Notes: generated from the sequence alone by a model not told the origin. A stretch of DNA of 64,000 nt from Escherichia coli (GCF_024700885.2 NZ_CP117016.1), one strand, 5' to 3'. Numbered from the stretch's first letter, positions 15,814 through 15,947 are shown. Numbers and translations: made by a program.

Positions 15814-15832
15814 TGGTGCATCCGGGAGGATT
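15814..15832 (-). other. 19-nt 3'-terminal tRNA-Arg fragment (acceptor/T-arm remnant) with no 5' half
   Basis: tggtgcatccgggaggatt matches the 3' end of the flanking tRNA-Arg copies, then diverges into about 115 bp of unrelated structured spacer. Confidence 0.6.
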
Positions 15833-15947
15833 ACTCGCCTTGCGGCTCGCCCTTCGGGCCGTTGCTAAAGCAACGTTATCCTCCCTGGTGCCTGCGGTTA
15901 TTACCGCCACCTCTTCCATACTTTCATCGCTGAAAGTACGTAGAATA

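Follow-up and report, generated by a model that had tools for sequence, protein, structure and literature searches.

The tRNA-linked repeats (TLRs) of Escherichia coli were first noticed by Egan and Landy in 1978, and the 1999 catalogue of Rudd places 22 of them at 10 loci of strain K-12, as recounted in those sections of Stenum et al. (2021, PMC8144298) that are drawn upon here. According to the same sections each TLR ends with 18-19 bp identical to those that close the tRNA or rRNA gene lying upstream of it, a repeat that has been proposed to direct RNase E cleavage; these sections give the TLRs no known function, and an early stringent-response claim for rtT was withdrawn by retraction (PMC8144298). 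The strain table of that article lists raQ, raZ and raV at the arg locus, together with a strain deleted for all 22 TLRs. RrA, RrB and RrF, which Stenum et al. (2021) describe as TLRs of rrnA/B/D, share this class by the TLR definition and are co-transcribed with stable RNA; they are defined by an 18-nt copy of the 3' end of the upstream gene, a copy for which a role in processing has been proposed. The sections cited describe them as processed RNAs with conservation in Enterobacterales and with binding of Hfq and CsrA in vitro (PMC8144298). The RtT RNA, or RttR, of the tyrT-tyrV operon (Bosl & Kersten 1991) is annotated in K-12 as an rttR gene that runs from a point 7 nt beyond tyrV precisely to the CCA of its TLR. 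Like the block described below, 3'ETS-leuZ is a non-tRNA piece of a polycistronic tRNA transcript, and it is freed by the tRNA-processing nucleases; unlike the block it has the sRNA partners RyhB and RybB and is without a tRNA-end copy (Lalaouna et al. 2015, as far as cited in these parts of PMC8144298).

The locus considered here lies in a 64,000-nt stretch of E. coli DNA, analysed as a whole and referred to as the window. Its surroundings are those of the E. coli csrA / serV-argV-argY-argZ-argQ / yqaB region, a minus-strand operon with the gene order annotated in K-12 MG1655 and with adjoining open reading frames for CsrA (16436-16621), AlaS, YqaB and YqaA (Table 1). The four tRNA-Arg(ACG) genes are identical in sequence and are separated by spacers of 198 (argV-argY), 62 (argY-argZ) and 101 nt (argZ-argQ), in agreement with the initial annotation, which had given 198 bp against about 100 and 60. 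Since promoter-like and terminator-like sites bracket the array, the 134-nt block that opens the longest spacer lies inside one transcription unit. In sense-strand order argV is followed by a 56-nt trailer, a 78-nt core, a 64-nt spacer that is homologous to the 62-nt argY-argZ spacer, and argY. ARAGORN also calls a plus-strand tRNA-Arg(tcg) at 15933-16004; this is the antisense of argV plus flank, is called in K-12 as well, and was rejected as a false positive. The open reading frames across the block, for example 15791-16075 (94 aa, minus strand) and 15813-15992 (59 aa, plus strand), extend through tRNA genes and are considered spurious.

Table 1. Features of the serV-arg tRNA operon and of the 134-nt block in the window, in sense-strand (minus) order
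Feature	Position	Strand	Basis
Promoter-like site upstream of serV, TTGACT-16-TAATAT	16183-16210	minus	consensus scan only
serV, tRNA-Ser(GCU)	16028-16120	minus	ARAGORN + Rfam
argV, tRNA-Arg(ACG); 3' end copied in block	15948-16024	minus	ARAGORN + Rfam tRNA model
Whole extra block, trailer + TLR; first 134 nt of the 198-nt argV-argY spacer	15814-15947	minus	spacer comparison, fold
56-nt trailer after argV; hairpins at ~15917-15940 (GNRA-capped) and ~15894-15907	15892-15947	minus	fold
78-nt TLR core, short RtT-like form	15814-15891	minus	MFE fold, inverted repeat I1, RNAalifold, model R1, Rfam RtT
Hairpin 1, CGUUGC-UUUA-GCAACG	15860-15875	minus	MFE fold, RNAalifold
Hairpin 2, GCCC-GAA-GGGC	15849-15859	minus	MFE fold, RNAalifold, homologue alignment
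Hairpin 3, GCC-GCAA-GGC, GNRA loop	15837-15846	minus	RNAalifold, homologue alignment
Exact 19-nt copy of tRNA-Arg 3' end, AATCCTCCCGGATGCACCA	15814-15832	minus	5 exact copies, repeat family D2
Ordinary 64-nt inter-tRNA spacer after TLR	15750-15813	minus	direct-repeat family D1, strain comparison
argY, tRNA-Arg(ACG), downstream of block	15673-15749	minus	ARAGORN + Rfam
argZ, third tRNA-Arg(ACG)	15534-15610	minus	ARAGORN + Rfam
argQ, fourth tRNA-Arg(ACG)	15356-15432	minus	ARAGORN + Rfam
Terminator-like hairpin + T-run downstream of argQ	15172-15186	minus	consensus scan only

The block is almost certainly the known TLR that follows argV in E. coli and as such is not new; it is apparently the repeat called raV in EcoGene, a name taken here from the strain table. 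It lies inside a tRNA operon, on the sense strand and between argV and argY, all 19 of its last 19 nt are those of the 3' end of the upstream tRNA, and it is the counterpart of a catalogued K-12 TLR, the argV-argY spacers of window and K-12 differing at 1 of 198 positions (197/198 nt shared; raQ/Z/V listed). The K-12 arg-locus TLRs (raV, raZ, raQ) offer the same position after argV and the same 19-nt identity, but K-12 has the raZ and raQ cores besides, whereas the window keeps only raV. What is found at this locus is therefore a catalogued repeat and not the sign of a mobile element or of a new gene, and it belongs to a class that, known since 1978, is conserved and structured and is still without an assigned function.

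The plus-strand 19-mer tggtgcatccgggaggatt is the reverse complement of AATCCTCCCGGATGCACCA, the last 19 nt of the tRNA. The initial annotation recognized this identity, which is exact, but read the tRNA fragment as the start of the extra sequence; the sense strand is the minus strand, hence the fragment is the 3' end of the block. The copy spans tRNA positions 58-76, i.e. the 3' half of the T-loop, the 3' strands of the T stem and of the acceptor stem, and the ACCA tail. It occurs exactly five times in the window (the four genes and the block), where shuffled sequences lead to an expectation of 0.00 even with two mismatches, and the identity grows to 27 nt when the 8 nt after argY are included (family D2).

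The closing stem of the core joins a 5' arm (15878-15891) to a tRNA-like 3' arm (15818-15834) and encloses three hairpins. These arms are contained in a 17-nt inverted repeat (I1; 15818-15834 against 15875-15891, 82% complementary), at the centre of which are found the inverted 8-mers gggaggat/atcctccc that had been picked out at first inspection. In the predicted fold the 5' arm GCACCAGGGAGGAU pairs with AUCCUCCCGGAUGC as a 17-bp helix with three mismatches that leaves the ACCA tail free, and the two hairpins that had been named at first inspection, which read gcccttcgggc and cgttgc-taaa-gcaacg on the plus strand, are both present in the MFE structure as hairpins 2 and 1 of Table 1. The MFE of the 134-nt block is -60.6 kcal/mol (z = -6.7 against shuffles) and that of the 78-nt core -39.2 kcal/mol (z = -5.2). 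As modelled, the closing helix is an imitation of a tRNA acceptor stem stacked on a T stem in which three hairpins replace the T-loop. In the tRNA-like domain of tmRNA, too, an acceptor-like helix is stacked on a T-stem-like one, an NCCA tail is left unpaired, and a foreign structure takes the place of the rest of the tRNA. The block resembles such minihelix mimics in its stacked helices, NCCA tail and foreign insert, a likeness seen in the predicted fold, but it is without T-loop, D-arm and anticodon arm and its acceptor part has two mismatches. Neither ARAGORN nor the Rfam tRNA model finds a cloverleaf at 15814-15891, where what is left of a tRNA is the T-stem and acceptor 3' strand with their imperfect complements.

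The trailer (15892-15947) matches 15293-15341 at 90% identity (family D3), and related trailers follow argZ and argQ. Long trailers after tRNA-Arg open with a hairpin capped by a GNRA-type loop (15917-15940, 15497-15520 and 15320-15343, minus; GCGA, GUGA and GCAA), the stems of which differ among copies and strains by compensatory changes such as ACUUUCA/UGAAAGU, CAUCA/UGAUG and CCUUCA/UGAAGG. This covariation suggests a conserved structure just 3' of the tRNA.

By its sequence, the core is a short variant or relative of the RtT RNA of the tyrT operon. The Rfam RtT model (RF00391) matches the minus strand at 15814-15947 with 34.7 bits (E = 1.8e-5, model positions 46-130) in a scan of the 198-nt spacer and with 30.0 bits in a 2-kb scan, scores of 30-35 bits that lie below the gathering threshold of 45 bits; for comparison, K-12 raZ scores 31 bits and the four tyrT copies 133-137 bits. 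The 3' core hairpins of RtT joined to a tRNA 3' end are aligned with high posterior probabilities. The 3' two-thirds of the model is common to both RNAs, i.e. CGUUGC-loop-GCAACG, CCC-GAA-GGG, a variable third hairpin and GAGUAAUCC leading into the tRNA 3' end, and in both a 5' arm pairs with the tRNA-like end. However, model positions 1-45, which in RtT hold two further 5' hairpins and the tpr reading frame, are absent from the block, where the 5' arm abuts hairpin 1, and the end of the block matches tRNA-Arg whereas that of RtT matches tRNA-Tyr. The tpr frame of the tyrT TLR begins at GGATGAG, in place of which the arg short form reads GGATAACG, so that it is without the start codon. RrA, RrB and RrF differ from the block in another way, in that the end copied is that of 5S rRNA and the repeats are located between two terminators. 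A misfiled Salmonella record labels the homologous core 'RtT RNA'. Besides tRNA and RtT, an E-value scan of Rfam families gave weak and implausible matches only (miRNA, plastid and Pseudomonas families), and these were set aside.

A search of one-genome-per-species contigs with the two-hairpin core as a pattern gave at least 120 loci holding at least 170 cores. The core is conserved beyond E. coli, with more than 40 genera of the Enterobacterales represented among the matches listed and, in addition to these, Gilliamella, Zophobihabitans, Marinobacterium, Amphritea and Aestuariibacter. In 111 of 170 cores among the matches listed, the core is followed by an exact copy of the 3' end of a local tRNA on the same strand, most often of 18 nt (56 cores) or 19 nt (45 cores); the remaining cores among these matches are mostly at locus edges or are decayed terminal copies. 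The tRNA partners of the 111 listed cores are Tyr (46), Lys (29), Arg(ACG) (19), Pro (13), Glu (2) and Val (2). Among the same listed matches 109 have the long RtT-like form and 45 the short form in which the 5' arm abuts hairpin 1, the latter being linked to Arg genes and, among Escherichia and related bacteria, to Lys genes. Where the tRNA-Arg itself differs, as in Yersinia, Buttiauxella and Serratia, the TLR end tracks the local tRNA, and in Buttiauxella at least (TLR end ATCTTCCTGGGTGC) the 5' arm compensates (GGGAAGAT).

The pairing of the core was followed through these homologues. RNAalifold applied to 24 short forms recovered the closing stem and the three hairpins, with closing-stem pair 7/68 being G-C where the copy is linked to Arg and U-A where it is linked to Lys, and with hairpin 3 swapping GC, CG and AU. 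A covariance model (R1) built from the same 24 short forms has the core as its sole match in the 64-kb window, at 104 bits; it finds three copies at the K-12 arg locus, a single one in O157:H7 and another in Nissle; E2348/69 has none, and 100 foreign loci contain 172. In 142 distinct matches 83% of cells are paired, as against 31-56% when the partners are slid by 1-3 columns, counts that are biased towards the model by an alignment (A3) fitted to its structure. In these 142 homologues hairpin 3 has 98.7% of its cells paired with double changes at all three of its pairs, while the stems of hairpins 1 and 2 are near-invariant in sequence and the loop of hairpin 1 varies; the search pattern included hairpins 1 and 2, so that their invariance is partly a matter of ascertainment.

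Some arrays carry many units. One array of Pantoea ananatis (locus L105) has six Arg-linked cores, and Pantoea sp. IMH (L023) has at least six Lys-linked cores, each unit with its own terminator-like GGCGCCCTAAAGGCGCC-TTTTT hairpin. At three loci of Marinobacter and Alloalcanivorax (L035, L048, L065) the motif CGTTGC-N4-GCAACG-G-CCCGAAGGG occurs without a tRNA 3' end and has A-rich/T-rich hairpins (AAAAAATCGCCGGGAGCGATTTTT) on its flanks; these copies may represent another family of repeats with the motif in common.

The origin of the repeat can be sought in a tRNA T-loop. In Citrobacter, Kosakonia, Phytobacter and Trabulsiella a tRNA-Tyr pseudogene, complete from the 5' end onward, enters the core right after GGTTCGA; the final 20-odd nt of a tRNA-Arg body lead directly into the core in Yersinia nurmii and Serratia grimesii; and long forms retain the cognate T-stem 5' strand and TTCG upstream of the core. 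This tRNA-body evidence consists of hand-checked examples, a scripted search being confounded by the real upstream tRNA within its 110-nt window. A tRNA gene copy in a tandem array would have gained a module of hairpins near positions 57-59 of the T-loop, most of its 5' part being lost thereafter; insertion at this point would explain why the identity always starts at position 58 or 59. The tRNA-derived remnant seen in the initial annotation is in this sense borne out as a tRNA-derived repeat, and the partial gene duplication that it offered as one source is a reasonable origin, given that other genera carry the core in the T-loop of a tRNA pseudogene or 3' half. For the question of TLR function it is relevant that many different tRNA ends share one core, joined to them at the T-loop, and that the closing stem of this core covaries with the local tRNA. 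At the tyrT loci of the four genera with the pseudogene (L003, L008, L016, L042, L072, L079) this pseudogene, conserved in all four, is the first 'gene' behind the promoter, upstream of the real tRNA-Tyr genes, and has the anticodon loop CUGCAAA in most cases and a degenerate 3' acceptor strand.

Within E. coli the region is general and the repeat is not. BLAST matches are found in 5,423 of 5,426 complete genomes, all of them chromosomal and with 0 plasmid places, and together with the near-identity to K-12 this supports the surmise that the sequence is native to the species. The argV block itself is carried by about 70% of the 5,426 complete genomes and is absent from about 30%, a figure for which 3,888 best matches have >=95% identity and two evenly spaced row samples give 20 of 30 and 8 of 12; such population fractions are approximate, in that BLAST joins pieces across the repeated array and thereby confounds identity bands. 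The raQ core is present in 4,739 genomes (87%). The idea that one identical spacer might be found in all E. coli with no association to mobile elements thus holds for the second part, there being no mobile-element link, and fails for the first, the spacer being polymorphic.

The layouts of individual strains show the unit that comes and goes. The spacers after the first, second and third tRNA-Arg genes measure 198/62/198 nt in K-12 (with 280 nt between argQ and yqaB), 198/62/101 in the window and in MLI114 (210), 64/62/102 in O157:H7 (280), 64/62/63 in Nissle 1917 (280) and 63/63/63 in E2348/69 (147), the last without any TLR copy at all. O157:H7, Nissle 1917 and E2348/69 are without the argV block, and the argV-argY spacer of O157 and Nissle is the last 64 nt of the 198, so that 15814-15947 is exactly the indel unit, bounded by the 19-nt repeat. 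Other copies have been lost differently. In the window the argZ-argQ spacer (15433-15533) has 101 nt as against 198 in K-12 and its TLR core is missing; after argQ (15290-15355) the trailer is kept and the 72-nt raQ core is gone, the gap falling precisely between two GCACCA hexamers; MLI114 agrees with the window at both places. E2348/69 is without both trailer and raQ, and its gap corresponds to the interval between two 27-nt repeats (tRNA end plus TATTCTCC) that are seen in Nissle. Deletion joints are therefore found at 6-, 19- and 27-nt direct repeats, a diversity that indicates slippage or recombination across these repeats and not site-specific excision. The number of TLRs in the E. coli arg array varies in this way from 0 to 3, and the free gain and loss of copies supplies natural plus and minus strains for work on TLR function.

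The explanation that accounts for these observations best, and that as a whole is held to be likely, is that the TLR is a short-form relative of RtT that is processed together with the tRNAs, is dispensable, and is kept by the dynamics of the array. The TLR would be transcribed as part of the tRNA precursor and cut out by the enzymes that release the tRNAs, with RNase E cleaving just after each CCA and 3' trimming halting at the paired CCA end; the product would be a stable structured by-product of about 130 nt, from about 15940 to 15814 in the window. The RttR annotation at the K-12 tyrT locus has exactly the layout proposed here for the arg TLR, and the processing scheme is modelled on RttR and on RrA/B/F. 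It seems somewhat probable that the RNA is a processed, non-essential passenger, maintained because recombination and slippage between the repeated tRNA ends would let the TLR persist, multiply and be lost. Paired within the TLR, the orphan tRNA end is probably kept out of wrong pairings with the pre-tRNAs next to it. In nature the TLR is dispensable, being absent from many strains. However, the compensatory changes and near-invariant hairpins across orders suggest selection and are a poor fit with a purely neutral passenger. A literature search on expression of the arg spacers (argV/argY/argZ, RttR, Hfq co-IP) returned nothing specific to the arg TLR.

Selection on structure invites the alternative that the excised RNA acts in trans, as a sponge or a protein-binding sRNA in the manner of 3'ETS-leuZ or RrA/B/F, in which case its level would report transcription of the tRNA operon and hence growth rate. 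In favour of such a regulator can be counted the processing and the Hfq and CsrA binding in vitro of the conserved RrA/B/F as described in the cited sections (PMC8144298), the structure conserved with compensatory changes, and the retention of the core in the more than 40 genera among the matches listed; the several GGA motifs of the RNA and the adjoining csrA gene point the same way, but may be coincidence. Still, the 19 TLRs of tRNA operons score below 0.01 in the CsrA-binder predictor of Stenum et al., no target or phenotype is known, and the one early claim, for rtT, is retracted, all as given in these parts of PMC8144298; furthermore, the roughly 30% of complete E. coli genomes without raV, and E2348/69 without all three arg copies, evidently do without it. 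A trans-acting role is accordingly rated as rather unlikely.

A role in cis, by which the block would aid the folding, processing or transcription of the polycistronic tRNA precursor, e.g. as an extra entry point for RNase E or RNase P or by insulating identical neighbouring tRNAs from mispairing, is a doubtful candidate. The copied tRNA 3' end is indeed followed in the TLR by the spacer that also follows argY (27 nt identical to the argY end and flank), the TLR has a tRNA-like structure with an ACCA tail, its trailer hairpins covary between copies, and guidance of RNase E by the repeat is the proposal made by Stenum et al. (in the sections cited of PMC8144298). Against this, many strains run the same four-gene array on plain 62-64-nt spacers without a TLR, and the TLRs in E. 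coli are variable in placement as well as in number (0 to 3).

The origin in a T-loop can be pressed further, to the proposal that the three-hairpin core is a discrete module that inserts, or inserted in the past, into T-loops of tRNA gene copies (positions 57-59), that it has spread over at least five tRNA species, and that it encodes an RNA with a conserved function; this is thought improbable. Among the matches listed, the orders so colonised would be Enterobacterales, Orbales, Oceanospirillales and Alteromonadales, and the RNA, a mimic of acceptor and T stem with a CCA end, may be a decoy or substrate for an enzyme that recognises tRNA ends, or a sensor of tRNA-operon output. Such a module is consistent with the near-invariance of hairpins 1 and 2, the compensatory changes of the closing stem and hairpin 3, and the tRNA bodies that run into the core.

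A scar of site-specific integration, with the 19-nt repeats as attL and attR and the 115 nt as the last remnant of an element, was raised by the initial annotation as an old attachment-site duplication. The resemblance is genuine, in that at tRNA-gene att sites of integrative elements, as at the block, inserted DNA is flanked by directly repeated tRNA sequence that begins in the T-loop and includes the 3' end: the 134-nt block is bounded by exact 19-nt direct repeats (15948-15966 and 15814-15832) that reach from T-loop to 3' end, and it is present or absent exactly between these repeats when O157:H7 and Nissle are compared. The sublocation from T-loop to 3' end is the one used by P4-type integrases. 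Unlike in such elements, however, the insert is 115 nt of conserved structured RNA without recombinase or mobile-element link; there is no integrase, cargo or credible open reading frame, the flanks being tRNA genes, csrA and yqaB, and the block lies inside a transcription unit. Among the matches listed the same core is moreover fused, always in the sense direction and in many cases as tandem units, to at least five different tRNA ends in several gammaproteobacterial orders; the loss of other copies took place at repeats of 6 and 27 nt and hence at no single fixed site; and selection on RNA pairing is evident. A search of phage and plasmid collections gave no genuine phage or plasmid, all matches being chromosomes filed there by mistake, one captured piece of chromosome, or a low-coverage 'phage' contig of unverified status. 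An attachment-site origin is thus considered very improbable, and the TLR kept by array dynamics is preferred to it.

The plasmid record deserves mention in its own right. It is a 14-kb circular record of K. pneumoniae, pVA681-14 (NZ_CP093469.1, locus L128), typed as a non-mobilizable plasmid, and it carries a chromosomal segment with csrA, serV/arg tRNA, yqaB, yqaA and gshA beside an IS3-family ISKpn18 transposase; it is either a piece of chromosome that was excised or captured, or an artefact of the assembly.

Chance resemblance or an assembly artefact as the source of the block itself is next to inconceivable, with five copies of the 19-mer observed where none is expected and with an identical or near-identical spacer in thousands of independent complete genomes.
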